Assembly: GCA_017654855.1 (NCBI GenBank)
Contig: CM030336.1
Location: 4,898,001 to 4,930,829, forward strand
Source: Podospora anserina
Lineage: Eukaryota
Length of the DNA stretch: 32,829 bases
Reading direction: 5' to 3'
Both the position numbers and the translations under genes were made by a program. The notes beneath the pieces are model-generated. The model had not been told where the DNA came from. It worked only from the letters and a program-made list of their open reading frames with translations, and searched no databases. Below are positions 1,338 through 29,735 of the stretch, piece after piece. The first letter of the stretch is position 1. Each line of letters starts with the position of its first letter.

Positions 1338-2187
1338 GTGGGGGGTAGTACCCGACCCCAGGTTTCGGGCCGAGGATGTCTGAACCAAGCTGCGGGGACC
1401 ACCCGGCACTGAGCTAGTGTGGCGCTCTAATCTCGGGGGCAGCAAGCCACTTTCCTGAAGGAACCATACATTAGTTGCAGGAAGCGAACGATTGTCAGGG
1501 ACTGTGCTCCCCTGTCTTTGCTTCCCAAGATCTGGAAAACACATGCAGGGGACGGTGCAGGACTCATGAACCAACCATAGGAACGGAACTTATCTGTGCC
1601 ACGTTTTTTCTGTCAGTCTATATCAGCTTGCTGCACAGATCGATGGCTTCTAAGAACGAACAAGACGAACAAAACAACCCGAGTTGTTGGGCCCCCGAAA
1701 CGTCAGCGAATTCAACAGTTGATGGTCCCATTTTCAAGTCAAACAAACAAAGCAACGGCGGCAGCACTCTCCGGCACGGACATCTGGAGACCGAACTGAC
1801 CCATAACAAGTTTGAGCGGTGAGCAAACCATCTTCGGTCAGAGATGATATGATTTCATCTTCAAGAACAAGGGAAGTGCAGAGCATGGATCGGGATCCCA
1901 AGGACAGGGTACAGCGTGGGGAAAAGAGTACCCAGCACCACCGACACGGAAGCGAACCGCCCGGGAATAACCTCACGAGGCCTGAATCCGGCAATGGATT
2001 ACCTACAATCCAGGGTCTTCTCCGCACACTAGCTCGCCCTAGCCCACAGCTCCCCACCGGCAGTTCAACTCTGAGAGTGGGAGCAGGTTACATTGAAATA
2101 GATGATAATGCTCGTGGTGCCTCAATACTCAACCTCGTTCGTTGGATCGACTCCATCTCTTCAACACAACCGTAACGATTTCTCCGC
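1338..2187. promoter_or_regulatory. Putative CreA/Cre1 (SYGGRG) carbon-catabolite repression sites upstream of the sugar transporter
   Basis: SYGGRG matches on either strand at 1338, 1392, 1784, 1916, 2020, 2052 and 2182. The motif is short and degenerate, so this is only modestly above chance. Confidence 0.3.
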
Positions 2188-2192
2188 TCGCC

Positions 2193-3945
2193 ATGTTGCC
2201 AAGACCGGCGTGGTTAACTAAGCCCTTCCTAGCCTCCCTCTTTTTGGGGATAGGGGGGTTTCTTTATGGATAGTGAGTCTGATGATCTAGGTCTCTTAAA
2301 GTAATGCGGACTGACTTCCCTTCAGCGACTCTGGAATCATCACCCCGAGTTTGGCGTTGGGTTCGTTCGTGACATACTTTGACAAGCCCGACGCGCCGCT
2401 TCGCGGTGCCATTGTGTCTGTGTATCAAGCTGGAGCTTGGTTGGGCAGTGCGTCAGTTGGTGTGACAAGTGACAGGTTGGGTAGGCGAAAGGCCATTGCT
2501 TTTGGGTGTATATGGGGCGTACTTGGAGGCGCACTCATGGCCGGCGCTGCCCATGTTGCCATGTGTAAGTTCCCTTGTCTCATGATGTCAACATACGCTG
2601 ATGAGCCGGTATTTCAAGTGATCATTGGTCGCCTTCTCGTCGGCTACGCGGTCGGGACCATTACCGGAGTTGCTCCTGTTTTTGGAGCAGAAATAGCCAA
2701 GACGCACGAGCGCGCAAAGATCACTGCGGTGAACCAGATGAGTGAGTGCCAACCTCTACGGGAGATACTGACCGGCGGCTGATCTTCCAACAGTGGTGGC
2801 CTGGGGCTTTTTCGTAGCCTTATGGGTAGGCGTGGGAGAAGGTAAATGGGGCAACGCGAACCAATGGAGACTCGGGTTTGCCATCCAGGCCATCCCCGCG
2901 CTCGTTCTCGGGGTCGGCGTCCTTTTCATCGGAGAGTCACCACGATGGCTCTGTCTCCAAGGCCGCTATAAAGATGCCGAGGAGACGTTCAACCGGTGGC
3001 ATCACGACGGAACAAACGATGAATGGTGCCGGACCGAGTTCGTCCTTATCCAGACCAGTATTGCTGAGGAGGTCGACACGCAACACCACCTCGGTTGGGT
3101 CGATCTCGTTCGCACCCCTTCTTTCCGGAAACGTCTTTTCGTCGGGTGCTTCGTCTGGGCTGCTGCCATGCTGTCTGGTATCAGCTTTGTCCAGTATTAC
3201 CAGACCGCCATCTATGCGACGCTGCAGTTCGACCAGGACCAACAGCTGCTGGTGAGCGGTTTGTACGGCTGTGTTGCCCCTGTTGCGTGCATTCTTTCGC
3301 TTTTCTTCGTCGACCGCGTTGGCAGGAAGAAGATCTTGGTTAGCAGCTCGGCCTTTCTGTCGGTGTCCTACATGATCATCACGATTCTTGCCGCCTTGTA
3401 CCCTGCGAGACCTGGTTTCCCGACCAACGCGGCAGCCCAGAAGGGCCTGATTGCCTGCATCTTCATGGTTTCAGCCAACTACTCGGCGTTATTGGGCCCC
3501 ATGACTTGGATCATTCCGTAAGTTTTTTCTTTCGAGATCTGTGACTGAGAAGGCTCAGACAGCTGACAGAGCTTGCAGGCCCGAAGTTTTCACCACGGAG
3601 CTCCGTGCCAAAGCAAACGCCGTCGTCCAGGTCCTGCACTACTCTATCAGCTTGATCATCACCCAGTGTTCGCCTATCGCGCTTGAGAGGGTGGGTTGGA
3701 AATATTATGTAAGTGTCAACGCCATAACTTCATATAACCGATCTATTGCCTGACACTCGCTACAGATCCTGTTTATCCTCACCAATGCTCTTTGTGCGGT
3801 TGTCTTTTGGCTTGCCTATCCGGAAACAAGAGGAAAGTCACTTGAGGAGATTGACGAAATATTCGGTGACATTGAGAGGAAGCGTGACGTTGAGGTTGAT
3901 GCTGTCGGGAATGTGGTAGTGGGGAAGGATGTCAATGAGAAGTAA
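2193..3945 (+). CDS. MFS sugar porter family transporter (Sugar_tr), ~491 aa, 6 exons: 2193-2272, 2326-2564, 2619-2741, 2794-3517, 3579-3708, 3766-3945
   Basis: Five GT-AG introns of 52-61 nt with CTGAC/CTGAT branch sites splice to one 1476-nt frame. Sugar-porter motifs: GFLYGYDSG, SDRLGRRK, IIGR..VG, GESPRWL, VDRVGRKK, PEVF...RAK, YPETRGKSLEEIDEIF. Confidence 0.95.
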
Positions 3946-4229
3946 GGGGCACTGTACTTGCTCAAAGTTAGATATGGATAAGCACATGGGATATTATCAA
4001 CGGTTGCGCAATGCTGTCATGAAAAGAAAGCTTTGCGCGAATACTATGGATTTATGCTCCAATCCATGATTCATTATACCATGACAAGTCGTAGAATTGG
4101 CTAAGGTATCTATAGAATATCTATCATATCAGTTATTCTCCGATGGATTGTAGTACAATCCGTTAAGAAACGCACCAAAAAAAACGCCCCACTTTGGAAA
4201 TAGGGGGTAGGATCCGTTAAGAATTCAGT

Positions 4230-5147
4230 TGTACGATCCGATAAGATCTTTCTTACCAAAATAAAAAAGAAAGATATTATTAGAATCGCCTAAACGAGCT
4301 GTATAGAATAATATAGGATATATTATTGTACGAGCGGTATAGAATGGTAAATAGTAAATGTAAAGTTAGGTATAAGTATATTAGTAATGTACGTAAATGG
4401 TAGGGTAAGTACGATCCGTTAAGAATTTAGTTGTACGATCCGATAAGATTTTCTTTATTAAGATAAAAAAAAAGTATATTATTAAAATTATTTAAACGAA
4501 CTGTATAGAATAATATAGAATATATTATTGTACGAATAGTATAAAATAGTAAATAGTAAATATAAAGTTAGGTATAAGTATGCTAGTAATATACGTAAAT
4601 AGTAAAGTAAGTATAATCCGTTAAGAACTTAGTTATATGATCCGATAAGATTTTCCTTACTAAAATAAAAAAAAAATATTATTAAAATCGTTTAAACGAG
4701 TTGTATAGAATAATATAGGGTGTACTATCGTACGAGTGGCGTAGAATTATAAATAATAGATGTGAAGTTAGGTGTGAAGTTAGGTATACGTAGGTTAGTA
4801 ATATGCGTAGAAAGTGTAGTTAAGTTAGGTAGTAAAATAGTAAGTTAGTTATATAATCCGATAGAATTTTTTTTATTAAAGTAAAAAATAAAGATATTAT
4901 TGGAATTACTTATATAAGTTATATAGAATAGTATAAGGTATATTATTGTACGAGCGGTATAAAATTATAAATAGTAAATATAAAGTTAAATATAAGTATA
5001 TTAGTAATATATATAAATAGTAACGTAAAGTTAAATAATAAAATGGTATATTGTACGATCTGATAAAAAATTTTTTATTAAAATAAAAAATAAAAATATT
5101 ATTAGAATTATTTGTACGAACTATATAAAAGAATATAGAATATATTT
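4230..5147 (+). repeat. ~202-217-bp tandem array (~4.5 units) of TLH element copy 1
   Basis: The (T)ACGATCCGATAAG anchor recurs at ~4234, 4437, 4639, 4855 and 5056, with similar intervening sequence. Confidence 0.85.
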
Positions 5148-5289
5148 TAATATAAAAAATATATAAATAATATTTAATAATATATTATAATATATTATAA
5201 TATATAATAAATATAAAATTAAATAAAAATATATTAATAATATATATAAATAATTAAGTATAGTTTATTTATAAAATAATATATTATAT

Positions 5290-5529
5290 TAATTTAAGGT
5301 ACGGTTATAGGCCTATAAATATTAATATATAAATAAAGCCTTTAGAGAATTAAATAGTTTAAAAGATATATATATAATTTTAATCCTTTAATTAATTTAA
5401 TCCGGTACTTATTTTATATAAAACCTAACCTAAAAGTAAGCTATTATTATATAAATATTTTTATCTAAAACTTTATTAAAGGTATTTTTATAGTATTATT
5501 ATTATTTTATATTTTTTTTCATTATTTTA
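5290..5529. mobile_element. Short (240-bp) solo LTR related to the Gypsy LTRs, inverted relative to them, heavily RIP-mutated
   Basis: Its reverse complement matches both LTR ends (ggcctatagccgtaccttaaacta; taaaatagtgagaaaacac...) and the internal aataagcaccggatt block. ATAT flanks it on both sides (5286-5289, 5530-5533). Confidence 0.7.
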
Positions 5530-5700
5530 ATATAATTTAATAAAGTTTTTTTTAAATAAAAAAGCATTATTAAAATTACTTTATTACGCTATATAATATA
5601 ATATAAATTATAATATTATATTATAAATTTATTTTATTAAAGTTATTAGTATATAGGAAATATTAAAGCCGATAATAAAAGTTATTTATATAATTAATTT

Positions 5701-5743
5701 TAAAAAATAAAAATAAAAATAAAAATAAAAATAAAAATAAAAA
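5701..5743. repeat. (TAAAAA)n microsatellite
   Basis: About 7 tandem copies of TAAAAA are directly visible. Confidence 0.8.
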
Positions 5744-5779
5744 ATATATATTAAATTTTTATTATCGTACGATATATTT

Positions 5780-6266
5780 AATTATTGGAATTATTAATAA
5801 CTATAAGCTCCTTAATCGCTCCCGTAACCTTTTATTTTCTTTACTCTCTTCCTTAACTTTAATACCGTTTTACTTAGCGGTATAAAAGTTATATTTACTC
5901 TTATAATCCTTTTACTTATAGTTATTATAAACACTACTTTAATACTTATCCGTCGTATAATAATCCTTAAAGGGCCCCCTATTAGGTTTATTAATATAAG
6001 TAATATAAAAAAAAGTAATTTCTAAATTACGGCTTTAGATTAAAACTATATTTAAGTAGTTCAGACGAGCTAATACTTTAGCCCCCTTTATTTTACTAAA
6101 AATATATTCGATATCGGCCGATAGTAAAGTCGAAATTACTTATTATATTTCCTATATATTTATAAAGAAAAGTATTATTATACGAATAAAATATATATTA
6201 ATATTAATATAGAAATTATTTATTAGCCTCTTAATATAAGGCTAATTAATATTAATAATCTTATAC
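5780..6266 (-). pseudogene. DUF3716-like gene relic of copy 1 (5' end displaced to 18142-18170 by the Gypsy insertion)
   Basis: Homologous to ~22990-23480. It shows the same RPSYLN.VLIQSR and C..CKW..H..CS remnants, with more RIP. Confidence 0.65.
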
Positions 6267-6630
6267 TAAAATAGTGAGAAAACACACAAAACAACCACAA
6301 CACCACAAATATACCCTCAACAGGTCTCAAAATGAACACACCTGCGTGACAGTGACTCGCTCGCAGGCCGCACTTCACGTAGGACAAAGAAAAGACACTA
6401 TAGGCTCGCAGGCCACATAATAAGCACCGGATTGGCCTGATCAGAGGGCCAGAATTGCCTGCACGCGTGTAAGGCACAAAAATACGAAGAAAAGAATAAA
6501 AGTCGATAATCTATCTAAAATAGAATGTCCGAAGCAAACCGCTTATATACATAACCCCTAAACCCCTAAGTCCTCTAAGAGCCCCGCTTCCTTACTTATA
6601 CTCTTAGGCCTATAGCCGTACCTTAAACTA
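6267..6630 (-). repeat. Gypsy 3' LTR
   Basis: 364-bp direct repeat of 17774-18137, differing essentially by transitions. The TG...CA termini are RIP-altered. Confidence 0.93.
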
Positions 6631-9600
6631 AACCTCCCTTCGCATTTAACTATTATAAACTAATAAGTAAATATATATATAAAAAAAAAATCCTTTATAA
6701 ATTAAAAAAAAAGAAAATATCGTTTAATAAAAAGAAGGGAAAACGATATAATCCTACTATCCCTTTATTTATTCTCCCTTAATTAAAGAGAAGAGTACCC
6801 TTACTTTTCGGATCTCAGAGTATACCTCCGTCCCTATCGAACTATCATAATTAGTAACCTAACGACTTCCTCCCTTCGTTTTTAAAGAACTTTAGGAGCC
6901 TACTCCTATCCTATAAAACTAGGTATATAATTAGACGAAAGGTATATTATTAACGATCCTAAATGGTTATAAATAGGGGAACGGGTAATTATAGGCTTAA
7001 AGAAGAGCGGCGAGTTTATTATTATAAAAGTATAAAATTTAAAGGGGGTTATTACCCTATTTAATCGTTAAGAATTACTCGATACGTTACTTAATTTAAA
7101 CCCTTTATAATTAAAGGGAAGACTCACGATATACTTATTTCCTTTAATAATAATAATTAAAACTAACGGAGAACTAAAAAGGAAAGTAAACCGGGGAATT
7201 AATAAAGATTTAAAAAGAAACGAGAAGGTATTTAGTAAGTTAAATCCTTTTACGTTTATTAAGTTCTTTAGGCCCTTCCTCCTTTATTTCTTATTATATA
7301 TCCTTTAATTAGGCTTATAACCTAAAAACCTTTTTATATAAATTATTTATAACCTTATTATTTTTTTCCTTATAATACCTATAGTCTTATAATCTTTATA
7401 ATAACGATCTCCTCTCTAAACCTTTATTACCGTTAAATCCTTCTTTTTACCATACAAAATACTTTTTTAAAAATAAATATAATAATATTTTAAAACTTAA
7501 AAACTATATTCCTACGCCCCGCCCTATTTACTATAAATTAGTCTCCTTACTTTTATATTAAAGCTATAGTAAAAAGCATAACGGATATAAGATACTAGGT
7601 AAGAAATAATATTAATTTAATACCCCTTTTAATCCTTCAACGAGTTTATATAAACTAAAATACTAATAGTAATATTATAGATACTTACTATTTAATAACT
7701 TCCGTTATTAATATAAATAGAAAGGATTTAATATCGTCGGTTAAAAACATTATAGTTATCGTTAAGTAAAAAAAAACGTATTAACGACTTTATTATAATA
7801 AGGTTTAAAGGCTCTTTAGAAATTTATATATAACGCTCGAGGATTTTTTAAAGAGAATACCGAAAAACGTAAGTAAGGACCGAGCTAATAAATTATTATT
7901 TAGTTTTTAATTAATTTTAAAAGTTATATATAGTATAAGTAAGGGAAGTTATATAAATACCGTAAATATAAGTCCGATTAGGGGGAATTATTATTTTTAA
8001 ATTAGGAAAAAGATATTTAATAATATTAATCGAAAACTATTTTACGAAAATAATATTAATTTAATCGGGCCGCCTTTTTATAATATAATTTTTTAGGTCG
8101 GTAATTAAGTTAAGGCTAAAACGAATAGGCTAAAGAGTATTATTACTTTAGGGAAAGAAAATGCTATGCGGGGAATTAGAGTTATAGACCTTATTAATAC
8201 TTTAAAGGCGTGCTTTTTAAATAATCTTTTTAACGAGATTATTAGGAGGACCGAATTTCTTAATAGTAATAAATTTTTTTTATAATATATTATAAATAGA
8301 CTTTATAAAAAGCGTTAATAATATTGTTTTATAAAAATTAAGAAGGAGTAGTATATAGTATAATCTATAATTAGAGGGTTATTGAGAGGGAAGTAAGGAA
8401 TTTTTTTAGAATAAAAAGTTAAAGAGGGAAAAAGGTTTTCGGTAAATCTTTATTCTTTATTATTTATTTAGCTTATAAAGTAAGATTATTAAATAGTTAC
8501 GTAAGCCGTTTAAGGAGGAAAGAGCGTTTTAATAAGTCTCCTTCCTATAGAGGTCTATAGGATTAGTCGTACCGTCCTATCTTTTAATTATAAATATTTA
8601 TATTAATTTTCTTTATTCTTATTTACTTTTTATTTTTTTTAATATTTATTAACCGCTTCCTTTTAATAGCCTTTTTTTTAAAGAAACTTATTACTTCGTT
8701 CGATTAAGCGGTTAACGACCTTACTATTTAAGTATTTATAACCTTTTTCGTTAAAAAACTTTTTAATTAGGTTAAAGGAGTCTTTAACCTTATTACGTAC
8801 GATTAGTCCGAAGTCGCTATAGACCCTATTTAAAAGCCTTTACTTATTACTTTTACTTATTATTTTACCGACCTTATTTATATTCCTAATAATTAAAGCG
8901 TTACTTATAAGAAGTATATTTAGGTTCGGCGTTTTACTTACGTTTATAACTTTACTATATTTAAAAGTATTAATATTTATTACGATATTTCTTTTCCTTA
9001 TTAAACTACTTTTTAATATTTTAAAATTTCCCCTTTAAATTCTAAATACATAATTACTCCCCTTTACTTTAAATAATTCCTTTTTAATTTAACGAAAAAG
9101 GGGGGTAAGAAAAAATAGTAATTACTTTTTAAGGATATTAATATAAATAAAATTATTATTAATTATATTTCTAAAGCGTTATTAACCGGTTCCGTTAAGC
9201 GGATTTTCGTTAAATAGTTTAATAAGTAGTTTTTCGGGCGTTAGTTCTTCGAAATTATTAAGCGGGCTTATCGCTTTAAAAGCTTATTTATTTAGGCTAC
9301 CGGGTTATTATAAGTACCGCCCCCCTAATTAAATTTAATTTAATATTAATATATTAAATTTAATTATATTAATTTATATAATAAGTGCGATTAAAATTAT
9401 TATTAGTTTTTCGTAACGTTTCCCGATAGGATTAAAACTAAAGTAATATAGCTATATTTCGGTTATATAAAAAAAAAGAACCTCGATTAGAAATACGGGA
9501 ATTATTAGTATAAAGGTATTTATTATTTATAGTTTAATATTAATAAGGATAACTTTTACTTTAAGGATTTTAGTAATAGTAGGTTATTAAAGTTGGATCG

Positions 9601-10249
9601 TAATACCGTAAGTTTAATTCCTAATAGTAAGGAAGTCGATTAGAATTAGGAATAAGAAAAATAGCGGGCTAAGTATAAAAAATTTAGGAAATAATAGATA
9701 GATAAGAAAAAGGAAAAAAAAAAAGAAAAAAAATAGTTTTTTATTTCTTTAGATTAAAGGAAGGGGTATAAAGAGAGGAGTAAATCGGAAAAAAAAATAA
9801 TAAGAAAAAAAAAAAAAAAAATTAAAAATTTAATATAATAATTTTTACTTTAATTAATTACTTCCCTTAATATCTTTCTTCCCTTTAAAAATAAATAATT
9901 TCTATAACTCTATTCTTATAATATAAGCTTTAATACCTTTTTAAAAAAAAATAATAATTATAATACTTTCGTTATCGTTTCTCTTTAATTACTTAAAAAG
10001 TCCTTTAGTTTACCCTTCTTTAAAACCACTTCTATACTTTTATTTTTTTTAAATCTTTTTTATACTTTAATATTCTTCCGTTCTATTTAAGTTTTTCCTT
10101 TAATTATTATTCTCTTTAGTATTTCTTTTACTATTTTTTTTTCTTTATTTTTATTTTTTACTATATCTATACCTTCCTTTACTCTATTTTTAAGTACCTA
10201 TTTAACTCTCCCTAGTCCTAACTATATATCTATATTCTTTTTATTTATA

Positions 10250-13200
10250 TATATATTTTTTAACTTAAAAAACTTTTTTACTTTATTTAGCGTATAAGAA
10301 ACTTATAATAGTACCCTATTTAGTATTTTTAAAAAGTAATAAATATTATTTAATTCGACCTTCCTTACTCTAAAAGGGCCGTCCTAGCAGTATTATAGCT
10401 TCCTTACTATACTTATATCTAACTTTTTATTTATTTTATATATTAATATTAAGTCCCCCCTTTTAATTATACTATTCTTAAGCCTAATACTATAAATCCC
10501 TTTTCTATTCTTTTTTACTATAACTTTCTATCTTACTATATTAACCCTCTTAGTTATTAAAATTAAATTTATTTCTTAGGATTTTAATAATCTTACCCTT
10601 ACCTTTATTAAATCTATAATCGCTTTTTCCTTCTAATATCTCCCTAATCTATCGAAACTAATTTTTTCCTATTAAACGACTTTCTATAATAGTATATCCT
10701 TTTCGATCGGTATAATAAGGTTAAACCTATATATTAAATAAAAAACACTATACTTATAAATACCTTATATCGTAATTTTATTAATAAATAATATATAAAG
10801 GAGCTACTACTTTTACTTTTTCCCCGTCCTATCCGTTATTTTTATTAATATTAATATAATTAGGATATAATTAAACTCCGTTACTCTATTTACTTTTACG
10901 TTATAAAGTAAAACTATTACTCGAAAAACTTTTAGTTTCTTTAAAATCTTAATAGCTTCCTTTTTAAATTCTAATCCGCCGTCCACTATTACGATTAAAG
11001 GGTAACCCTATTTAAAGATAATATTGTATAAAATAAAGTTTTTAACCCTAAAAGCCTTACTTAAACTTAAGACCTTCGCTTTTAAATACTTAATTAAGTT
11101 ATTCCTCGCTTTTAAAAAATAAATTTTTTTTCCCGAAACTATTAGTAAAAACTAAACGTTTAAATATTATTTCGTAAATAGGGTAGTTAAAGGCTTAATA
11201 TATAAATACTAATCTTTTTAACGTTTCGGGCTTTATTATTAATATTATTTATATATTTTAATCTAAACTTCGACGTTAACGTATATACCTTTCTAATAAT
11301 AGTTTTTTACTATTCGGGTATAGGTAGCTTCCTATCCTTTATAACCTATCTCGTTATAATATATATTAAAGATTCTTTCTCGCTCGATTAGAGGGTTAAT
11401 AATTTTTTTAAAGGGAAAGCCTCCTTTATTTAATTTAAAAAATAAAATTTTATTTTTAAGAATTATTTTTAGGGCGTCGTTCTTAATAGTCTAAACGTTA
11501 AACCTTATTTTAGCCTTTAGCTCCGTACTAATCGCGAGGAACTCGGCGATAGTATAAAAGTAAGGAGACTATAGTCTATTTAAGTAGGGGCCTTACTTAA
11601 TAATTTCTTTTTTCTTTTTCCTAATATTTACCCGTTAAATACTTACTTCCTAAATATCGTTCTTCTAGATCCTTACGTTAACTTTATTATTAATATTTAA
11701 TTTTAATTTTTTCTCCCTTAAATTAGAGGGGCTAGGTAGTTTTTTCGATAATACGTTTACTATAAAGTTCTTACTCCTAGGGATATAAATAATTATAAAA
11801 TTAAAAAATCTAATTTATTTTAACTATTTTATTATTAAGGCGCTAAAAACGTTACTAGCCGCCCCCTGGACTTAGTGGACTACTATTTAAGCGTCCGTTT
11901 TTACCGTAAAATATACTCCGAAAAAATACTTTTTAAATCTCTTTAAAATATATAATAATCCTCTTAACTTCCTCTTAATAATATTATACCTTTATTTAGT
12001 CGGGCTTTAAATATTATTCTTAAACCAATAAGGGTACCGTTTTTTATTAAGTTTTACTTATTTTATTACCGTTCCTTACCCCGTTAAGTTTATATTAAAA
12101 ATAATAAAAATTTTACCGAAACGATTATTATTAAACGTTAAAAAAACTAAATACGGTACTTCTATAATTAAAAAGGTAAATTACTTTATTATACTTTATT
12201 AAACTTCTATTTATTTTTATTTCGTATCCTTCTTTATTAAGAAATATAGCGGAATTGCGATTAAATTAAAGAAAGGTATCTATAGCCGATAGTAACCGGT
12301 GATCTTTAGGAAGGTACGAATATCCTTAAAACTATAGTAAATTCGTTATTTCTTTATTTTTATTATTTTTATTTAATTAGGGAAGCGTTTATCCGGTATA
12401 TAAAAATAGTTAAGGATAATAATTTTCCGTTTATATTAAAGGGATTTTACGGCTATAATTATAGTTCCTATAAGTTTATAATTAAATAAAATTATATCGA
12501 TATTCTTTAAGTACTTTAAAACTTATTTTTTAACTTTTAGTTTTTCTTTTTTACTATTATAGTTTTACTTTAGTCCTTTTACTATAATATCGTTTAGGTA
12601 TAGCCGATATACTTATAAGATAAGATTTTAAAAGACTTTAATTACGGCTTTTTAGAATTAAGCTATTAAGTTAGTAGTTCCTTAAAGTAAAGTATATATT
12701 TTAAATAGGTTAATAAGTATCGCGAAAGTAATAAAGTTTCGGTTTATTAAAATTAATTTAATTTAATTATATTCGGAAAAGAAATTAAATAAGGAAATAA
12801 TAAAATATTTTATAAAATCCTTACTAAACTCCTTAATACTTAATAAAATAAAGGTATTTCGTTATATAACTTTATTATATTTTTAAATATTATTAATTAA
12901 ACGGAAATTACTATCCTTTTTTTTTATTAGGAATTAATTATTATAATAGGGACTATATATTTCTTTAATAATATTTTTTTTAATTCGTTCCTTAAAGAGA
13001 TTAATAACTTTCTTTATAAATAGTTTTGGGATCGAAATAAACTTACTTTACTATATTTTATAAGGGATAATCCTAATATATTAAGTAAAGAAAATTTTTT
13101 TAAAGATTTATTTATATTTAATAAAGTCCTATACTAATATAACCTCCCTTACGAATAAAATTATTATAAATATTTTAACTTTTTAATTTATTAAAATATT

Positions 13201-14560
13201 AGTAATTTATTTAATTAAATTAGTTAAACGTTTTAAAGTAAAGTATAACCCTTTAATTATTTTAAAAAACTTAAAGATTATAATATTATTAAATTTTAAA
13301 TTGTATTATAGGGATTCCTTAATTACCGCCCATTTCTTTATTTTTTAATTCGGATTTCCTTTAAAAATATTATTATTTAACCTAATATTATTAATTAGCT
13401 TTACTTTTTTATTTACCCTTTTATATATTGTAATAATAATAATAATATCCGTAAACGTTAGTTAAGCTTATTTAAAAGTAATAATTAAACTAATCTTTAT
13501 ATTATTTTTCTTTTTAAAAAGGAGCGGAGGTAGATAACATTTATATAGTTATATAGTAAAAAAGCTACGCTAATCTAGTTAAGTGAAGGACTAATTAAAT
13601 ATCTTTAAGTATAAGGATATTATATCGGGCTTAAATAGGGTTATCCTATTAGTCCTTTAATTAGATAGCGGTAATATCTTTAGTAATAATAGTGACGGTA
13701 CTAAATATAAATTTATTATAAAGGTCGGTGGTAGCGGTCGTTCTTTCTTTAAAATTTCGTCCGAAATTAAAGTTTTTATCGTAATTTTTATTTTTTTAAA
13801 TTAAAATAAAGACTTCTCTTTTTAACAATCCTTTATACCTCCTTTCTTTCCTTCCCTCTAATTATTAATATTTTTTCCTCCCTTACTCCTAATATCCTCC
13901 TTTTCTTTATTTTTATAAAAAATAATATTAAACGTTAAATAATAATTTAATAATAATAAACTTAATTTCCCTAAAATAAAATTAAGTAAAGAACGTTTAA
14001 CTCCTTTATTTAATTTCCTAATTATTTTATTCCTTTCCTCTAGCTCCTTCATTACCTATTTAGGGATAGGTACTCCTTTATTAATTAATCCTTTAAATAC
14101 TTATAAAAGTTAATTAGTAAGAGAAGTATTACTTCGATCTTTACTATTATATTTTACTTTTATTTTATTAATTACTTCCTTTTTTACTATATAGGCTTTA
14201 ATTAATTTTCCCCTATATAATATATTTGCGTTAATTATATAGCTCTTTATAAAATTAAAGGTAAGGTTTGTATTCGTAAAGAACGGGATACTTAATAGTA
14301 GGTTATAGAAACCTAAAGCCTTAATATTATTAATAATAAAGAAATAATATAAAATTAAAACCCTAATTAATATTACTAAAGCTTAAGTTTTATTTATAAA
14401 CGTAATTAGATTTCTATAAAGGTTTTTAAATTATAAGTTTGTTAATATTATTAATAAATAAAACCTTTTAATTATAGTTTTATTAATTAAATTATATTCC
14501 GAGCTTATATTTAATATTATTAATATTTTTTTTAAAGTTAGTAAAATAAAGTTATAATAT
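10250..14560 (-). pseudogene. Gypsy pol relic (protease, reverse transcriptase, RNase H, integrase); boundaries approximate
   Basis: RIP-altered motifs on the - strand: ILNISSEYNLI (~14500, LDTGSE), LL*GTTN and YLNDIIVKG (~12700-12580, LPQG..NS / YLDD), YFFGVYFTVKTDA (~11900, RNase H), VIVDGGLEFK (~10980, integrase D), and KL..*DGPFRV (~10380, GPF motif). Confidence 0.88.
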
Positions 14561-17200
14561 AGTAATAGGACGTTATAGGTTCGAGTAACGGTTTTTAAGA
14601 GAGTTCGTTTATTACTAGAAAGCCGGTTAATGGGTATAAATAGTAAAGTCCGTAATCGCTTTTTTAAACTATTACCCGGTTAAACCTTACTTTTAATAAT
14701 CTTTTTTTAAATACTTCCCTCGACTATATTATACTTATTATCCGCCGTAATCCCGTATAAAGTAAGGATAGTTTTCCTTTAATTAAATAGAGGAGTTTTA
14801 TTATATTTAGCCGTTTAAAAATTCGTCCGAACCGTTAACGGTAAGGCTTCCCCCTTTTATAGAACTTTTTTTTTTTTATCCGGGGTACTTTTAAAAGATT
14901 TATATTATTCGATTACTTTAATATTTTTAGTTATACTCTTTATATAATTTATTAATTAGTAAATAAATATAAGTAAAACTTTATAATACTTTTTTAATAT
15001 AAATTTAGTTTAATTATAAATATATTTTTTAATTTTTTCGGTAATATAATTCTTAAAGTCCTTTACTTTATTATTAAGTAATTTTAAGTTACTCCGGACT
15101 TTATTCCCCTAATCGGACGAAACTCCTTCCTTAATTACTTTTAATTTTTTTTATGCGGAAGTAAATATTACTTTCGGATTTTCGGTTAAGGTTAGGTTAT
15201 TTATATCCTTTTTCGGTAAATCCTCGATCTTTACTTTTTTTATTCCTTACGCGTTTACCTTTACTTTTACCTTTTAATTATAAATAATTATTAGGATATT
15301 ATTAAAGCGCTTTAAAATACTTTTAGGTAATTACTTTTCTATTAAGTAACGTTATAAAGTATTTTTAATAATATAATTATTAATTAAATTTTTATTAAAC
15401 GGTACGTAAGGTTTAAAGTACTTATAAAGTTTATTTAATTTAATATTTATAACTTTAATTATTTAAATAACTATTTACTTTTTTTTTTTAATTAAAGAAA
15501 TTTCGGGCCTATATCCCTTACCTTTATAAATTTTTTAATATTTAATTTATTTCGTATAAGCTTTATAGGTTTTATTTAATTTTAATTTTAACGAAATTAT
15601 AGTACGAATTAAATTACTAACCTTCCTTTTACGTTACGCTTTCTTTATATCTTTTTAATTAAATTACGCTTTTTTATTTTCTAGCTACTCTTTCTTATCG
15701 ATATATACTTTACTTCCTTTAATATAGTATAGTCCTTACGCTTTATTATATTTTTTTTTTAAATACTTTATCGACTTAACGTAATAATTAGTTTTACCGT
15801 ACTAAAAATACTTTTTTAGTAGGGGAGGGCTATCGCGGTACTACCCTTTTAATTTTCCGAATTAAGTTTTAATATTAATAATAAAGAAAGTATTAAAAAA
15901 TAAATCTATTTCCCTATTAAGGCCAATACTAAAATCTAGGGAATAAGGTACTTAGTTTTTTAAATATTAAACGCGGATCTTTATTATCTTAAATTTACCG
16001 TTTCCCGGTATAAAAAAACTATTATAAATATTCGCCTTTAAATACTATAGTACTATCTCTTTATTTACTATAGCGTTAACCGCTATATACTAATCGAGTA
16101 CCTCGGTTACCTAATTAAAGGTAGTAAAGAAAGGTATAATAATTAATTTATTTTCTTTATAAATTCTTTTTTTTATATTATATTTATTTTCGATTATATT
16201 ATTAATTTAATTACTTTAAATAATAAAATTTATAAATCTTAAACGATGTTTAAATTCTTTTCGGTTAATAAAGGTTATCTTTATTAATTTAGAAAATTTT
16301 ATTTAAAAGTAATTAATAATCTTAACTTTTATTATTTTTTTCTCCCCGGTCGGTACTTAAAAAAATAGTTTAAAATAATTAAAAATAACTTTCTTTAACT
16401 CGCCTATACCTTTAAAAATAATTTTAGTATAAAAGTTATTTAATTCCTTATAAATATCTTTATTTTATCGGGGGTTATAGATTTTAAAGAGGTATTTAAG
16501 GCGGATAACTAAAATAAGTTAAATATTAATAAGTATAAATAGATTTATATATTCGTTAATTTATTTTTTTATATTAAAGTTATATTAAAATTTAAATTTA
16601 TAAACGCGAAAAGTAAATTCTATAATATAATACTCTTTATAAGTATTTTTAAAACGTTTTAAATATTCCGTAAAATACTTTCCTTTAAAATTATTTTTAA
16701 AACTAATTTTCTTTAAATTAAGGAATTTACGTTAAAGAAAATATATAGGTACTATAGAATAGGGAGTTAAATAATTAAATATAGGGGACCTTTAAAAGTA
16801 ATAATAATCGGGATAAACTCTTATAGGATATAGGTATTTAGGTTACTAAAATTAATATACGAACTTAAAAAGAGGAGCGGGATATCCGGTATACCGAGTG
16901 GAAGGCGCAGTATAATTCTAAGTAGCAGGATTTAGGTGGGTACGAGGTCCACTTAGTACGTTAGGAGCGTTAGGCCTTATAGTCGGGCTACTTTAATTAA
17001 AAAGGGGGCGAGGGGTCTTAGTATTTTTAAGGTAAGCGCGGTTTATAGTTGGGGAAAGGATAAATAGTAATAATTCCGGGGACCTAGCCGCCGGAATAGC
17101 TATTTTTATTACGGAACGAGCCGTAGGAGTTTAATACCCCTGGTTATTACCGGGAAGGCTAGTTAAAGCGATGGGTAGGATATTATTAAATATATCGATA
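14560..17200 (-). pseudogene. Gypsy gag region relic; boundaries approximate
   Basis: Lies between the 5' LTR and protease. It contains long codon-like stretches on the - strand, Pro-rich near 17200-16900. No diagnostic motif was confidently read. Confidence 0.5.
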
Positions 17201-17773
17201 TTCGATAATTACTATTATGTTTACGTTAATAATATAGTTTTTTCCTTATATATATTATTAAAAATATAAAAACGGTTATTCTTTATAACTTTAGTATATA
17301 AATATAAATTATATTTATTTAAATTAAAAGGAAAGTATTTACGTTTTTTTGCTTTTAGGTTCCTAATATTTTAAATTAAATTAATTTAAAAATCCTTACG
17401 ATTATTTATTATCGCTAAATAATATATTAGGAGGATTCTTTTTAATTAAAGATAAAAAAGGATTTTAATAATTAACGCGGAGATAAGGTTTATTAACGAA
17501 TTAGTTTTAATTAATATTTTTAATTTATTTTCTAGTTTTATCCGGACTATATACTTAACTCTCTACTCGCGGGTAAAAAATTTAAAGTTTAGTCGATAAT
17601 AAAAAAGTTTTATCCGATTAAACGGAGAAAAATCGTTTTTATTAAACCTCGCGGGGTTTAATAAAGTTATTGGTATTTATTATTATTCGTGGCTTCGCAC
17701 TTCCTTTAGTACCTAGGACTTATAAGTTTAGTTTGGACCTTAAGCTTTACTTAACCCAGGCACGACCTCTATT

Positions 17774-18137
17774 TAAAATGGTAAGAAAATATATAAAATA
17801 ACTATAACACTATAAATATACCTTTAATAGGTCTCAGAATGAATATACTTGCGTGATAGTGACTCGCTCGCAGGCCGCACTTTACGTAGGATAAAGAAAA
17901 GACACTATAGGCTCGCAGGCCATATAATAAGCACCGGATTGGCCTGATTAGAGGGCCAGAATTGCCTGCACGCGTGTAAGGCACAAAAATACGAAGAAAA
18001 GAATAAAAGTCGATGATCTGTTTAAAATAGAATGTCCGAAGTAAACCGCTTATATATATGACCCCTGAACCCCTGAGTCCTCTGAGAGCCCCGCTTCCTT
18101 ACTTATACTCTCAGGCCTGTGGCCGCACCCCAAACCA
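17774..18137 (-). repeat. Gypsy 5' LTR
   Basis: Direct repeat of 6267-6630. It ends ...aaacCA on +, immediately before the ATAC duplication. Confidence 0.93.
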
Positions 18138-18283
18138 ATACGAAGTACGGATAGTAAGGACGAAAGCTATTTTAAATATTTATTTAAAAATTAATTAGTT
18201 TATACGATTAAAAGTTTATTAAAAAAGGATTTTAATTAAAATTAAATTTATACCTCTAAAAACTTTAAAGCCGTATATATTAT

Positions 18284-18915
18284 TGTTAGATGGTAAGCCC
18301 TGATAGGCCTATAATATAGAACCTATACAGGGTTGCTGTAAAATACAGCAGTGCGTAAGCGGAAGCGGGAGGATACGACGGCAGTGCCGAAGAAAGGTAA
18401 AGCACTGTAATACAGTGAGGTATAAAAAATAAGAATTGCCTTTATTACCCTTGGCCTTAGCCTTTGGCCTTAGCCTTAAGCTTTTGCCCTTGAGGAAAGA
18501 AAGAAAACTATTCTACAGGAGAGAGGAGAGGTCTATATATAGGCCTTCGTAAGCTTACTGTGGGTCCTGTAGGCCCTGGAAGCCCCTATACCACTTTGGG
18601 GTATTTAGTGGGCTTAGGTGGGTCTAGTGTAGACTCACGGAAATCCATAGAACCTTCGGCAGCAGAGGTGCCCTGTAAATCATACTATTATAGCGACTTA
18701 CTACGTAAGCCTGTAGCTACTTTAAAAGGTTTTAGTATCTATTAACTAAGCCTTAGGCCACAGTAGCCCTGTAAGCCTTTAAGGGTCCCTTGTAAAGAAT
18801 ATTCTAAAGGGATCCAAGCCGGGAAGTTCCATTATTGCTTATAGTAGTACTGCCCACTGTAATATCAATCTATAGGGCAGTAAGTAGGGTACTTAATAGT
18901 ACCCACACATTAACA
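18284..18915 (-). repeat. Copia 3' LTR (632 bp)
   Basis: TGTTA...TAACA inverted termini. It begins exactly where homology to copy 2 stops, and is adjacent to the PPT. The partner LTR is not in the window. Confidence 0.8.
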
Positions 18916-21102
18916 CCCCTTCTGTGGGAGTGCTAGGTGCCCACTTACTAAGCCGTAGGGCCCTTATAAGTACTAGGCTTCCGGTAGTTCATTAGCTCTA
19001 AAAAGCGCTGGAACTTAGGTGCTGGTAGGGCCTTTATTAGGCCGTCGGCTGCTATATCCTCTGTAGGTACGAAGGATATAGTGATATTTCCTTCTGTAAC
19101 GCTTTCCCTAACGCCCTGGAATTTAAGGAGCGTGTGCTTGGTACGGTTATGGTACTTCGGGTTGTGGGCTGTCTCTATAGCACCTTAGTTATCGCACCTT
19201 AAGGGGGTAGGGTTCTTTAGAGAGCGCTAAATTTCACTGTATAGCCCTCTAAGCCACAGGGCTTCCCGGTTACCTTCTATTAAGGCCGTATATTCGGCCT
19301 CGAGGGTGCTGTAGGCAACCGTAGGCGCTCGTTTAGATTTCTAGCTTACAGGGCCACCTCCCTCTAAAAATAAGTAGCCGTAAGTAGACCGAGCAGTGGT
19401 TTTACAGCCAGCGAAATCGCTATCGGTATAGCCTATAGGCTTAATACTACCCGTACGTCCTAACTGTATAGCTAGGTCCATCGTGCTATATAGGTAGCTT
19501 AGCAGCTTTTTAGCTGCTTTTAGGTGGGCTACTTTAGGTGCTTGTAGGTGCCGTAAAAGCCACTGAACGGAGTGGGCAATATCGGCCCGAGTTTGGGTCA
19601 TCGGGTAGGTAGTAGTGCCTAGTAGGCTCTAATATAGCTTAGTATCGGCCTTGTTTAGTGGATTAGAGGGAGTTTCGGGGCCTGTAAGGCCTGGAGAGAG
19701 CGGTAAGGCGGGTGCGTAAGTGCTAACTTCGAAGTGCTTGACAGCCTCTTGGATATAGGCCTTTTGGTGGAGCTAAAGTAGCTTTTTACGCCTATTTCTT
19801 TTAATTTGGACCCCGAGAAAGAACTTAGTAGGGCCTAAATCCTCTATATCGTAGGCCTGAGCTAACTATAGCTTTAGGGCCTAAATATCTATAATAGAGG
19901 GTCTAATTAGTAAGCAGTCGTCGACGTGGCTCACTATAAAGATGCCTTTGTGAGGGTTATAGTAGGTAGCCGAATCTGAAACTAATGGACTATAGCTTAG
20001 GGTTTTAGCTAGTGCCGTAACCTTTTGTTGCCACAGGTGGGGGGCCTATTTTAGGCCGTATAGGGACCTTTTTAGTACTATAATTTGGTCCTTCGAAGGG
20101 TCCTAGCAGTGTTGTTTTAAAAGGTCTATAGCGGTTTGGCTACTAAGGCTATATTCGTATAGGCTTTTAGGGACTTCTATATATATATCGGAGTCCACCC
20201 CAGCGTTAAGAAAGGCCCTAACGAAATCGATTTGCTTAATTTCTAGGTCTTCTTTAGCTGCAATAGCTAGTAAAACCCGCTAGGTAGGTAGCGCTATAGT
20301 GGCTGCAAAGGTCTCGGTAAAGTCGGTTCCGGGCCCCTGTTGGAAGCCTCTGACTACTAGCCGGGCCTTAAATTTAGTAATTTAGCCCTGTGAGTCCTTT
20401 TTAGCTTTATAGACCTAAAGGCTAGTAATAGGCTTTTTTGGAGCCTGAGAGCGGTTAATGAAGTAGAAGGTTTTAGAATTTAGTAGCTGCTGTAGTTCAC
20501 TAAAGGAAGCCTGTAGCCACTGGTCCTTTAGTGGGTGCTTCAGGGCCTGTTTAAAGGTCCTAGGTTCTGTGCTAATAGAAGCAGTGCTGTAAGTGATAGC
20601 AGTAGTAGCCTGGTTAATAAAATACTTCACTAGAGCAGTGGTATCTATAGTATCGTTATTTACTACTTCGAATTCCTCCTTCTATAGCTTAGTGGCCTAC
20701 GGAAGTAGTACTTCGATATTAGTAAGCTTTGGAGGTGCTATTGCCGTAAGTATAGGCCTAGGAGGTGCTGTTGCAGTAGGTGCCCCTTTTGTAATTATAG
20801 GGGCTTCCCCTTTTAAAAGCTCGATATCTTCTAGTTTTAAAAGCCTTAGTTACGATATGGAGGCTATAGGTCCTTCTAAATAAGGCCTATAATTTTCGTA
20901 TAGTTTAACGAATAGCGTTTAGATTACTTGCCGGTGGCCTAGCCACACTAAGTAAGTGTTATTGCTTAGTACGGCTAGAAGCTTGCTTTTAGTAGCTTTA
21001 GGCTCTAGCTTCCTTACGGTAATACGTTTTTCAGGCGGTGTAAGTACTAGAACTTCAGCGCCTATAGCCCTGTAAAGTCCGAGGTCCGGGACGTAAGGGG
21101 CC
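18284..21102 (-). mobile_element. Ty1/Copia LTR retrotransposon, 3' half only (post-integrase region, RT, RNase H, 3' LTR), truncated by TLH element copy 2
   Basis: Motifs on the - strand: VPDLGLYRAIG..RKLEPKA (post-integrase SH3-like), EPRTFKQAL, KFKARLVVRGFQQ, SHVDDCL (RT), GYTDSDFAG, RCDN*GAI, RTKH and AADGL.KAL (RNase H). PPT AGAAGGGG abuts the LTR. Confidence 0.92.
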
Positions 21103-21204
21103 TATTAATTATTCTCCGATGGATTATAGTACAATCCGTTAAAAAGCGCACCAAAAAAAAGGCCCCACTTTAGAAACAGGGGGTAGGATCCGTTAAAGAA
21201 TTCA

Positions 21205-22960
21205 GTTATACGATCCGATAGGATTTCTCCCGTTAAAATAAAAAGTAAAGATAGCATTAGAATCGCCTGGACGAGCTGCACAGAATAGTATAAGGTATAT
21301 TATTATACGAGCGGTGTAGAATTGTAAATAAAAGATGTGAAGTTAGGGATAAGTATGCTAATAATGTACGTGGATAGTAAAGTAAGGTTAGGTAATAGAA
21401 GGGTAAGTTATACGATCCGATAGGATTTTTCCCGTTAAAATAAAAAGTAAAGATAGTATTAAAATTACCTAAACGAGTTACATAGAATAGTATAAAGTAT
21501 ATTATTATACGAACGGTATAGAATTATAAATAAAAGATATAAAGTTAAGTATAAGTATATTAGTAATATACGTAGATAGTAAAGTAAGGTTAGGTAATAG
21601 AAAAGTAAGTTATATAATCCGATAGGATTTCTCCCGTCAAAATAAAAAGTAAAGATAGTATTAAAATTACCTAAACGAGTTACATAGAATAGTATAAAAT
21701 ATATTATCGTATAAACGGTATAAAATTATAAATAAAAAATATAAAGTTAAGTATAAGTATATTAGTAATATACGTAAATAGTAAAGTAAAGTTGGGTAAT
21801 GGAAAGGTAAGTTATATAATCCGATAGGATTTCTTTTATTAATATAAAAAGTAAAAACACTATTAAAATTATTTAACCGAGCTATATAGAATAGTATAGG
21901 GTACATTATTATATAAGCGGTATAGAATTATAAATAGTAAATATAAAGTTAGGTATAAGTATATTAGTAATATATATAAATAGTAAAGTAAGGTTGGGTA
22001 ATAAAAAAGTAAGTTATACGATCCGATAGGATTTTTCTTATTAAAATAAAAAGTAAAAATACTATTAAAAATAATTAAATAAGTTATATAGAATAGTATA
22101 AAGTATATTATCGTACGAGCGATATAGAATTATAAATAAAAAATATAAAGTTAGGTATAAGTATACTAGTAATATACGTAGATAGTAAAGTAAGGTTGGG
22201 TAATAGAAAGGTAAGTTATACGATCCGATAAGATTTTTCTTATTAATATAAAAAGTAAAAATACTATTAGAATTATTTAAACGAGTTATATAGAATAGTA
22301 TAAGGTATATTATTATACGAGCGGTATAGAATTATAAATAAAAAATATAAAGTTAGGTATAAATATATTAATAATATACGTAAATAGTAAAGTAAGGTTG
22401 GGTAATAGAAAGGTAAGTTATACGATCCGATAGGATTTCTTTTATTAATATAAAAAGTAAAGATATTATTAGAATTGCCTAAACGAGCTATATAGAATAA
22501 TATAGGGTATATTATTATACGAGTAGTGTAGAATTATAAATAGTAAATATAAAGTTAGGTATAAGTATATTAGTAATATATATAAATAGTAAAGTAAGGT
22601 TAAATAATAAAAAAGTAAGTTATATAATCCAATAGGATTTCTTTTATTAAAATAAAAAGTAAAGATATTATTAAAAATAATTAAACGAGCTATATAAAAT
22701 AATATAAAGTATATTATTATACGAATAATATAGAATTATAAATAAAAAATATAAAATTAGGTATAAGTATATTAGTAATATATATAGATAGTAAAGTAAA
22801 GTTAGGTAATAGAAAAGTAAATTATACGATCCGATAGGATTTTTCTTATTAATATAAAAAGTAAAGATACTATTAGAATTACTTAAACGAGTTATATAAA
22901 ATAGTATAAAGTATATTATTATACGAGCGGTATAGAATTATAAATAAAAAATATAAAATT
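21205..22960 (+). repeat. ~202-bp tandem array (~8.6 units)
   Basis: The ATCCGATAGGATTT anchor recurs at ~21211, 21413, 21616, 21818, 22019, 22221, 22423, 22626 and 22827. Confidence 0.93.
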
Positions 22961-22989
22961 AATTAACTTTTATTATTATACGATTTATT

Positions 22990-23507: not shown

Positions 23508-23839
23508 TTTAAATATTTATTTAAAAGTTAATTAATTTATATAATTAAAAGTTTATTAAAAAAGGGCTTTAATTAAAATTAAACCTATACCTTTAAAAAC
23601 TTTAAGACCGTATATACCGCTTAGTTATTATACTTTAAGATCTTTATATTACCTCTTAAGTAATAATATTAATAAACGATAAATTTATAAACCTTATATA
23701 AAAATTATATAATATTTTTTTACTATTATATAATATTCTATTGTACGATATTTATATTATTTTATTATATAATATTTATATTATTTTATTATACGATAGG
23801 CTTACTATATAACCGTCCGGGAACTAAATATCTATATTT

Positions 23840-24830: not shown

Positions 24831-24947
24831 TAACCCACTCCACTTTTAATAGGGTATCCTTTTCTAAAAAAACTTACTAATAAACTTTAATTTAATAATA
24901 TCTCGTATTATATATAATTATTATATTATTATTAATACTATACTAGA

Positions 24948-29654: not shown

Positions 29655-29735
29655 TACTACGGTTTTTTTTTTAAAAAAAATATATATATATATATATTTT
29701 ATAAATAAAAGTAAAAATAAAGAAAAATATTATAT

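Follow-up and report, generated by a model that had tools for sequence, protein, structure and literature searches.

We analyzed a 32,829-nt stretch of Podospora anserina DNA (CM030336.1, positions 4,898,001 to 4,930,829; hereafter the window, whose own positions serve for all coordinates) and found two sequences, beginning at 4127 and 21103, that are best read as belonging to two copies of a discrete subtelomeric unit, present in multiple copies, and as marking its left, centromere-facing end. The unit comprises an ∼80- to 100-bp terminal segment with a palindrome, a 202-bp tandem array of RATCCGWTARR motifs, a spacer, GC-rich repeats, a telomere-linked helicase (TLH) gene and a satellite. 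The explanation that we favor, with moderate confidence, is that this TLH unit was stacked twice onto one chromosome end, its fixed left end being joined to a break. A first-pass annotation had reported the shared left terminus and ascribed it to enzyme-defined integration; the observation is confirmed by our analysis, and the interpretation is partly supported.

The left ends of the two copies coincide to the base. A 34-mer, TTATTCTCCGATGGATT(G/A)TAGTACAATCCGTTAA, is present at 4133 and at 21109, as first reported, and its 31-base core, searched across the whole window with up to three mismatches, matched only at 4136 to 4166 and 21112 to 21142; 0 of 100 dinucleotide-preserving shuffles gave a match. 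The hexamers preceding the 34-mer, TATCAG and TATTAA, differ solely by C>T and G>A, the direction of repeat-induced point mutation (RIP). Because these six bases differ by RIP-type transitions only, we placed the start of homology at 4127 and 21103, and the hexamer is, judging by its sequence, part of the repeat. It had been proposed to be either an element end or a crossover core. The first of these is supported, the transitions being of RIP type and the hexamer falling inside the matched part of the strain contigs described below. To the left of 4127 and 21103 the two flanks do not align, in agreement with the earlier description of unrelated flanks and a base-precise junction. The left end of copy 1 lies downstream of a major facilitator superfamily (MFS)/Sugar_tr gene, and the second junction indeed lies inside Copia coding sequence, in a minus-strand pol (RVT_2, E 8e-40). 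Both copies have the same orientation, head to tail.

Eighteen bases inside the boundary, each copy carries a near-perfect palindrome, GGATTGTA-G-TACAATCC, at 4145 to 4161 in copy 1 and at 21121 to 21137 in copy 2. The motif RATCCGWTARR, which recurs once or twice per 202-bp unit, has 19 matches in the window compared to 0.72 expected; 18 of them are within the two units, all on the plus strand, and in the copy 2 array there is one RATCCGATARR motif per 202-bp unit. This series looks like an array of candidate protein-binding sites. No inverted copy of the left end, as expected of a terminal inverted repeat, was found anywhere in the window, and when metagenome contigs were scanned for the exact pattern of the terminus, there were 0 matches. 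At junction 1 (4122 to 4131), the last five flank bases, TATCA, equal the first five bases of the unit, perhaps by chance in AT-rich DNA; junction 2 is without such a repeat.

Most repeats of the window are heavily RIP-mutated, with a GC content of 0.19 to 0.25 compared to ∼0.50 in the gene flank, TpA/ApT indices of 1.28 to 2.37 and (CpA+TpG)/(ApC+GpT) indices of 0.08 to 0.72. By comparison, region 1 to 4126 has a GC content of 0.505 and normal RIP indices. Therefore, the window was compared with itself in purine/pyrimidine (RY) code, which is blind to transitions, by RY blast. Tandem repeats were called by Tandem Repeats Finder (TRF), and in-frame stops were read as X in Pfam scans of window frames. 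The two copies share three segments: 4127 to 5163 with 21103 to 22126 (93.7% RY identity), 5754 to 6266 with 22965 to 23478 (97%), and 18138 to 18284 with 23475 to 23621 (99%). The RY self-comparison of the window found no further sequence common to both copies, and differences within the shared segments are almost all transitions.

With two copies only, a transposon end and a duplication breakpoint look alike, since the homology of any two copies stops at a common base. Thus, the earlier inference of an enzyme-defined junction was insufficiently founded on two copies alone, and a discrete end needs extra junctions. Contigs from four strain runs (X1, X2, X5 and X15; 1629 to 1858 contigs each) were aligned to 17600 to 21420 at 80% likeness, and, among those listed, contigs of all four strains showed further joints or loose ends at 21099 to 21101, which lends the inference support. 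Specifically, one X1 contig joins 18671 to 21101, with 48 bases on the shorter side; one contig each of X2 and X5 joins 18310 and 21099 on opposite strands, with 32 bases on the shorter side; and four X15 contigs start matching at 21101, their upstream parts agreeing at only 0.54. The same end, within 2 to 4 bases, would then stand against up to four contexts. In addition, four X5 contigs run on from 18279 with copy 2 sequence (agreement 0.94), so that only copy 1 has the Copia insertion and the native continuation of the unit is that seen in copy 2.

The window is organized as follows, from left to right:

2315 to 3521, plus strand: coding exons of the MFS/Sugar_tr transporter, in the unique, non-RIPed left flank of copy 1.
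4127 to 4206, plus strand: left terminal segment of copy 1, with the palindrome (4145 to 4161) and the first RATCCGWTARR motif (4157 to 4167).
4207 to 6266, plus strand: RIP-degraded 202-bp array and post-array segment of copy 1 (TRF, RY blast).
6267 to 18137, minus strand: nested Ty3/Gypsy long terminal repeat (LTR) retrotransposon (LTRs, target duplication, weak domains).
18138 to 18283, plus strand: continuation of copy 1 after the Gypsy element (99% RY identity to 23475 to 23621).
18284 to 21102, minus strand: Copia remnant (3′ LTR, polypurine-tract complement, pol up to the linker after the integrase).
21103 to 21203, plus strand: left terminal segment of copy 2, with the palindrome (21121 to 21137).
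21204 to 22961, plus strand: 202-bp tandem array of copy 2 (8.7 copies, TRF score 2459, 88% matches).
22962 to 23850, no strand assigned: spacer, the equivalent place of which holds a minus-strand DUF3716 gene in the relative L001.
23851 to 24837, no strand assigned: GC-rich tandem repeats of 57 to 137 bp (TRF, RY blast; GC 0.515).
25257 to 29600, plus strand: RIP-inactivated TLH gene (phmmer, tblastn; 3′ limit approximate).
29775 to 30052, plus strand: partial solo LTR of the nested Gypsy family (91% RY identity to both LTRs).
30564 to 32829, plus strand: telomere-proximal satellite of ∼30/96-bp units with TAACCGCTAT (TRF), running off the window.

Copy 2, from 21103 to the end of the window, is complete but dead from RIP. 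Its GC-rich tandem repeats lie ∼400 bp upstream of the helicase gene, and the block largely escaped RIP, since its GC content stays at 0.515 between neighbors at 0.19 to 0.25; short arrays occupy the corresponding position in L001. The helicase gene was detected only by phmmer of frame 26043 to 29639 against a 1.84-billion-protein library, which returned 1383 hits at E ≤ 1e-3 (best E 8.4e-109, over query residues 2 to 921); Pfam scans in six frames found nothing in 23600 to 32829 at E ≤ 0.01 or in 24800 to 29700 at E ≤ 10. When 12 family members were used in tblastn, all 17 segments fell in 25257 to 28916, in frame +3, and none elsewhere. Hence, of the two TLH units described in the first-pass annotation, the shared left ends stand and the second TLH gene does not: as far as its sequence can be read, the window holds one TLH gene, a RIP-killed pseudogene in copy 2 with 107 in-frame stops in 1448 codons. 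Only one family protein, P0004, aligns in the window from its residue 3, and no zinc motif is recognizable there after RIP.

Relatives of the gene were sought in metagenome contigs, and 78 related loci (L001 to L078) were obtained. In the closest un-RIPed relative, L001, 322-bp tandem units are followed by a minus-strand DUF3716 open reading frame (ORF; Pfam E 4.1e-8), 20-bp and 44-bp arrays, plus-strand zinc-finger (OrsD) and helicase ORFs, a 23/24-bp satellite and the telomere. The order of array, minus-strand DUF3716, short repeats and plus-strand YR-helicase (YR, tyrosine recombinase) that had been proposed for the window is thus intact in L001, and the part of it that fails in the window is DUF3716. 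A six-frame Pfam scan of 22900 to 24000 at E ≤ 1 found no DUF3716, and the L001 protein, used as tblastn query at E ≤ 10, had two chance-level matches in the transporter flank and none in the units. A minus-strand DUF3716-like stretch also lies upstream in L004. The 10-mer TAACCGCTAT has 26 copies in 30618 to 32811, compared to 0.36 expected for the whole window, and occurs 17 times in L001 arrays that end at (TTAGGG)n; the other loci have at most one copy each. Since this satellite is common to L001 and the window, the window ends inside the telomere-proximal satellite of copy 2. Among the 78 loci, (TTAGGG)≥3 is present in 7, always at the contig end downstream of the gene.

The relatives also show that TLH genes occur in tandem. 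L056 (1 to 13084) and L057 each hold a pair of TLH genes that point the same way, are separated by no telomere tract and belong to different subfamilies; the first gene matches L077 at 93% and the second L059 at 91%. An all-against-all comparison of the 78 loci yielded no set of copies of one unit that differ in their left flanks; most pairs represent the same locus in different samples.

The proteins of this family combine a helicase with a domain of tyrosine-recombinase fold. Among 34 full-length relatives, DEAD was found in 33, Helicase_C in 32 and OrsD (a C2H2-type zinc finger) in 17, and their source names in the library are "superfamily II DNA helicase RecQ" and similar. An AlphaFold model of the middle domain (P0002 residues 613 to 884, with 57 relatives) had a pLDDT of 83.4 and a pTM of 0.83. 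When this model was compared by VIA-align with 48,161 representative PDB chains, an archaeal Xer protein was the best match (Z 12.8, root mean square deviation 3.6, 156 aligned), with XerA (Z 10.6), XerH (Z 10.5) and Cre (Z 10.1) among the others, as well as phage and transposon integrases, type IB topoisomerases and, lower down, protelomerases. Rows 1 to 15 contain only tyrosine recombinases or type IB topoisomerases, and the first clearly unrelated row has a Z of 3.8. Foldseek searches of the PDB and of the BFVD viral models had the same families on top, with best E values of 1.9e-3 and 3e-3, all weaker than 0.001; phmmer of the recombinase-like segment against PDB sequences gave two chance-level rows only. 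In P0001 numbering, R408, E411, K443, R456, R543, H589 and Y598 are invariant in all 34 proteins. On the model, R408, K443, R543, H589 and Y598 would form the R-K-R-H-Y catalytic set of a tyrosine recombinase, so that the domain is of this fold and its catalytic activity is predicted. The H-to-Y spacing of 9 in this family is also that of lambda Int. The earlier assignment of the family as YR-RecQ therefore holds, given OrsD, the recombinase fold with R-K-R-H-Y in 34 of 34 and the RecQ-like helicase.

Copy 1 is a 2.3-kb left-end remnant, consisting of 4127 to 6266 and 18138 to 18283. In its flank, ORFs 2315 to 2782 and 2772 to 3521 match Pfam Sugar_tr at E 6.9e-19 and 4.1e-45. TRF found the array at 4207 to 5146, with a period of 202 and 4.6 copies, and an inverted partial solo LTR of the Gypsy family, at 5279 to 5535, lies inside the copy 1 array. 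The interior of this copy had been taken for DUF3716, GC repeats and YR-RecQ; instead, 6267 to 18137 is a nested Ty3/Gypsy element. Its LTRs lie at 6267 to 6630 and 17774 to 18137 (TA..CA), 6266 to 6631 matching 17773 to 18138 with 0 transversions in 366 bp, and a 4-bp target duplication, ATAC, is present at 6263 to 6266 and 18138 to 18141. Minus-strand matches to RT_RNaseH (11884 to 12105, E 1e-4) and Integrase_H2C2 (11260 to 11388, E 0.036), both weak and below the Pfam cut-off, stand in Ty3/Gypsy order, and one minus-strand frame with few stops extends over ∼9700 to 17200 (∼7.5 kb). Pfam found nothing in the plus frames of 6632 to 15631 or, at E ≤ 1, in the minus frames of 6632 to 9000. Excision of the Gypsy element in silico restores the colinearity of copy 1 with copy 2. 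For annotation, this means that heavily RIPed "TLH units" need transition-blind dissection, one apparent unit here being mostly nested Gypsy. The same Gypsy family struck the units repeatedly, as seen from the further partial LTRs at 5279 to 5535 (inverted) and 29775 to 30052 (direct).

Copy 1 stops at 18283 against TGTTAG, the outer end of the Copia LTR at 18284. The Copia remnant consists of a 3′ LTR (18284 to 18914; TGTTAG...TTAACA), the polypurine-tract complement (18915 to 18922) and a minus-strand pol that extends from RNase H/reverse transcriptase (RT; RVT_2 at 19719 to 20444) to the post-integrase linker and is broken at 21102. A weak SH3_retrovirus match at 20886 to 21089 (E 0.0012; 19.2 bits compared to the 27-bit cut-off of Pfam) lies 13 bases from the joint. 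Neither the 5′ half and second LTR of Copia nor the rest of copy 1 was found in the window. The Copia LTR block has ∼10-fold higher contig depth in the strain contigs, a depth that is not usable as copy number.

These data can be arranged as a record of two successive cappings of one chromosome end, with the Gypsy and Copia insertions between them. A unit would first have capped the end just beyond the MFS transporter gene. Gypsy and Copia elements would then have inserted into this first unit, after which the chromosome end distal to a break inside Copia would have been lost. Finally, a second unit would have been joined by its fixed left end to the break, resulting in a head-to-tail stack. 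Two cappings would explain the same orientation of the copies, the lost rest of copy 1, the lost 5′ half of Copia and the satellite at the end of the window. The joining, which we infer to occur at chromosome ends, was probably performed by the recombinase-helicase of the unit itself: its tyrosine recombinase, aided by the helicase, may create or use the fixed end by working on the palindrome and the motif array. Tentatively, one may go further and suppose that TLH units are autonomous chromosome-end mobile elements, in which a YR-RecQ-zinc finger protein recognizes the palindrome and array and links the fixed end with other DNA or with chromosome ends that are broken or eroded. If so, fungal TLH/Y′-like subtelomeres would be built by a recombinase-driven capping transposon and not only by homologous exchange. 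Such a mechanism would explain how chromosome ends are re-capped after loss, why units are stacked head to tail and why the genes always point to the telomere, and it would represent a new architecture of recombinase plus helicase in eukaryotic mobile DNA.

Several results weigh against the stacking explanation. Only two junctions are seen directly. The extra joints are on single short-read contigs with 32 to 48 bases on the shorter side, and the consensus of the X15 loose ends is purine-rich over its last 13 to 15 bases, perhaps being a RIP-diverged Copia flank, so that some X15 contigs may duplicate one junction instead of recording independent events. Moreover, 335 loose-end rows lie beyond those listed, so ragged ends are possible. 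Junction 1 is fixed, with 20 of 20 runs from 6 studies keeping 97 to 99% of sampled words of 1500 to 4400; an empty site on the transporter side, for which the first-pass annotation suggested a search, or any presence/absence polymorphism there, was found in none of these 20 runs. Likewise, the window gave neither a target duplication at the unit nor a second copy of the end sequence. The non-array parts of copies 1 and 2 differ by ∼1 to 3% transversions plus gaps, so neither copy is a recent derivative of the other. The only telomere repeat in the window is a dimer with one mismatch at 29260, at chance level, and a transition-blind search found no tract. Since the right end of copy 2 is outside the window, terminal stacking and internal insertion are not separable here. 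The resident gene, with its 107 stops, is dead, and therefore any joining must have been ancient or in trans. Finally, none of the 34 family members matches Pfam integrase models, and the presence of Ndc10 among the fold matches shows that a recombinase fold need not be catalytic.

The first of the other explanations, which we consider unlikely, is that copy 2 is a whole Crypton-like YR transposon that left its donor site in circular form and entered an intact Copia, with TATCAG/TATTAA as the crossover core; the missing part of Copia and the remainder of copy 1 would then lie past its right end, outside the window. It would account for the recombinase fold and conserved catalytic residues of the family, for a precise end with no terminal inverted repeat seen, as in Cryptons, and for a Copia broken within coding sequence. 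A terminus-like motif, TTAGTTATT, moreover recurs at 23621 to 23629. This motif is similar to the start of the unit (TCAGTTATT at 4129 and TTAATTATT at 21105) and stands exactly where the Copia LTR interrupts copy 1, so that the shared 2.5 kb of copy 2 are bracketed by a 9-bp direct repeat; however, the consensus, TYARTTATT, is common and not clearly above chance, with 23 matches in the window compared to 17.9 expected. We found neither a right end nor a target duplication nor a second core in the window, and the hexamer proposed as core behaves as part of the element, being inside the matched part of strain contigs that start at 21099 to 21101. In addition, the satellite at the end of the window is one that borders the telomere in L001, and in each of the 7 loci that have telomere repeats the gene points toward the telomere close by, which is unexpected for free insertion. 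Given the same orientation of the copies, the absent 5′ half of Copia and the end satellite, stacking fits better than insertion into an intact Copia.

Somewhat less likely again is that a subtelomeric block was duplicated by ectopic recombination or break-induced replication and has no defined end, 4127/21103 being one breakpoint and the other junctions its copies. The homology of two copies necessarily ends at the same base under such a duplication, and blocks of 7 to 58 kb are described as shared between subtelomeres of related fungi in passages of PMC4522978; the lack of polymorphism among the 20 runs and the possible RIPed Copia flank in part of the X15 consensus also agree with it. The left flanks, however, are unique DNA for copy 1 and Copia for copy 2, and two more joints fall at other positions of the Copia LTR, one of them inverted. 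A random breakpoint would not be expected within 2 to 4 bases again. The starts of ∼20 of the 78 relatives' contigs, 365 to 816 bp upstream of the gene, are compatible with a recurrent boundary or with assemblies broken in an array.

Very improbable is that the shared 2.5 kb have nothing to do with the helicase gene and are a pair of LTRs or a separate non-autonomous repeat: such a reading would fit two direct copies with an internal tandem array, the purine-rich run GGGACGTAAGGGG just left of 21103 and the 9-bp direct repeat TYARTTATT at both edges of the copy 2 segment, but it is already contradicted by strand and domain order, as the sequence between the copies is no plus-strand internal region but a Copia on the minus strand, which is interrupted in pol and has an LTR and polypurine tract of its own, while at least four X5 contigs continue from the 2.5 kb into sequence downstream in copy 2 and L001 has the same array-to-gene arrangement. 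The specific candidate of two copies serving as LTRs of a plus-strand Copia was rejected on the strand and domain order of Copia.

Further features of the relatives and of the window were observed. In L001 (139 to 781), each 322-bp unit contains a gene resembling tRNA-Gly(GCC) that has an insert of 45 bases. This gene scores 48.7 and 44.2 bits with the Rfam tRNA model, above the gathering score of 29, and is also called by ARAGORN in intron mode. In the 202-bp array of the window, neither ARAGORN (including intron mode) nor Rfam at E ≤ 1 found a tRNA. No Pfam family was matched by 7 of the 10 window ORFs tested, including those in the LTRs, array, GC repeats and satellite. About 20 of the 78 contigs begin 365 to 816 bp upstream of the helicase start codon (L006, L008, L011, L012, L017, L018, L020, L022, L029, L033, L034, L036, L039, L040, L042, L044, L052, L066, L072 and L074); this suggests a recurrent assembly break, either at an upstream array or where a multi-copy unit, collapsed in assembly, has its boundary. 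The upstream minus-strand ORFs of ten further loci belong to other transposons (a LINE in L009, a Gypsy in L030) or to no Pfam family. Minus-strand ORFs of 501 to 588 residues without a Pfam family lie upstream of TLH at L045:576-2300, L069:1346-3112, L076:609-2114, L077:326-1837 and L078:3132-4655, and they may represent a divergently transcribed partner gene in those lineages. The L030 element (5324 to 7882) is a minus-strand Ty3/Gypsy pol with RT, RNase H, integrase and chromodomain, ∼1.8 kb before the TLH start codon. This distance is too short for its gag, protease and 5′ LTR, and the element may parallel the truncated Copia beside copy 2.

Comparison with known mobile elements sets the TLH unit apart from most of them. 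Helitrons encode Rep (HUH) and a Pif1-like helicase and have a 5′ TC and a 3′ CTRR hairpin. The helicase of the TLH family, in contrast, is of DEAD/Helicase_C type with RecQ names, and no Rep (HUH) domain was found in any frame of 23600 to 32829. The unit differs from LTR retrotransposons in that no same-strand gag-pol lies between the 2.5-kb copies, the Copia there being on the minus strand. Starships are giant fungal transposons of tens to hundreds of kb with a DUF3435 "captain" tyrosine recombinase at the 5′ end. Like them, the unit is fungal, encodes a recombinase and has one defined end near which its genes start; unlike them, it is ∼12 kb in size and telomeric, and 0 of 34 family members match DUF3435 (8 Pfam families were matched at E ≤ 0.01). 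HeT-A/TART and the fungal MoTeR and FoTeR are telomere-targeted retrotransposons that move through RNA with an RT. The outcome is similar, with fixed-end units stacked head to tail at chromosome ends, but the TLH unit has no RT, the RT domains of the window being only those of the nested Gypsy and Copia.

REP9/Styx is described in passages of PMC8232023 as a 7.9-kb class II element that carries DUF3716-domain genes and encodes an integrase-core (rve) protein, with terminal inverted repeats of 43 bp and target duplications of 6 bp. A DUF3716 gene is also present in the L001 unit, whereas no terminal inverted repeats, target duplications or rve protein were found at the TLH unit. Cryptons, according to passages of PMC7175516, have a recombinase ORF and no terminal repeats, only a 4-bp flanking repeat. 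Their likeness to the TLH unit lies in the YR catalytic domain, the precise end and the lack of visible LTRs or terminal inverted repeats. Cryptons are small, however, and the TLH unit fuses the recombinase to a helicase and zinc finger, has long arrays and points to the telomere, with no flanking repeat or right end seen in the window.

Telomere-adjacent helicase repeats, such as TLH genes and the Y′ elements of yeast, have a literature going back decades, and it is these that the unit resembles most in its parts. As in published TLH, its protein family has a RecQ-like helicase and, in 17 of 34 members, a zinc finger; the units are multi-copy, lie next to telomere repeats in 7 of the 78 related loci and can occur in tandem (L056/L057), and the proposed head-to-tail stack would, by analogy, resemble tandem Y′ elements of yeast. 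Passages of 10.1101/2024.02.27.582403 describe TLH proteins as large RecQ-like helicases with two N-terminal C2H2-type motifs and, upstream, a conserved ∼250-residue "TLH domain," to which those passages assign no function. The family match (residues 2 to 921) covers the region 85 to 280 residues before DEAD, and by its position the recombinase-fold region would correspond to this domain. In one fungus, subtelomeric RecQ copies number 13, with a GC content of 34.7% (passages of PMC4522978). The spread of TLH/Y′ is ascribed, in the literature passages searched, to recombination between chromosome ends, and in these listings, abstracts and passages no paper was found that links TLH, subtelomere or RecQ to a tyrosine recombinase or Crypton. 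The precise, reused inner end and the YR fold of the family make an alternative mechanism directly testable. Thus, relative to the literature passages at hand, the unit belongs to an established class, the TLH subtelomeric units, and adds two features that were not met with there: its centromere-side end is base-precise and abuts unrelated DNA, and the region that matches the "TLH domain" by position has a modeled tyrosine-recombinase fold with invariant R-K-R-H-Y.

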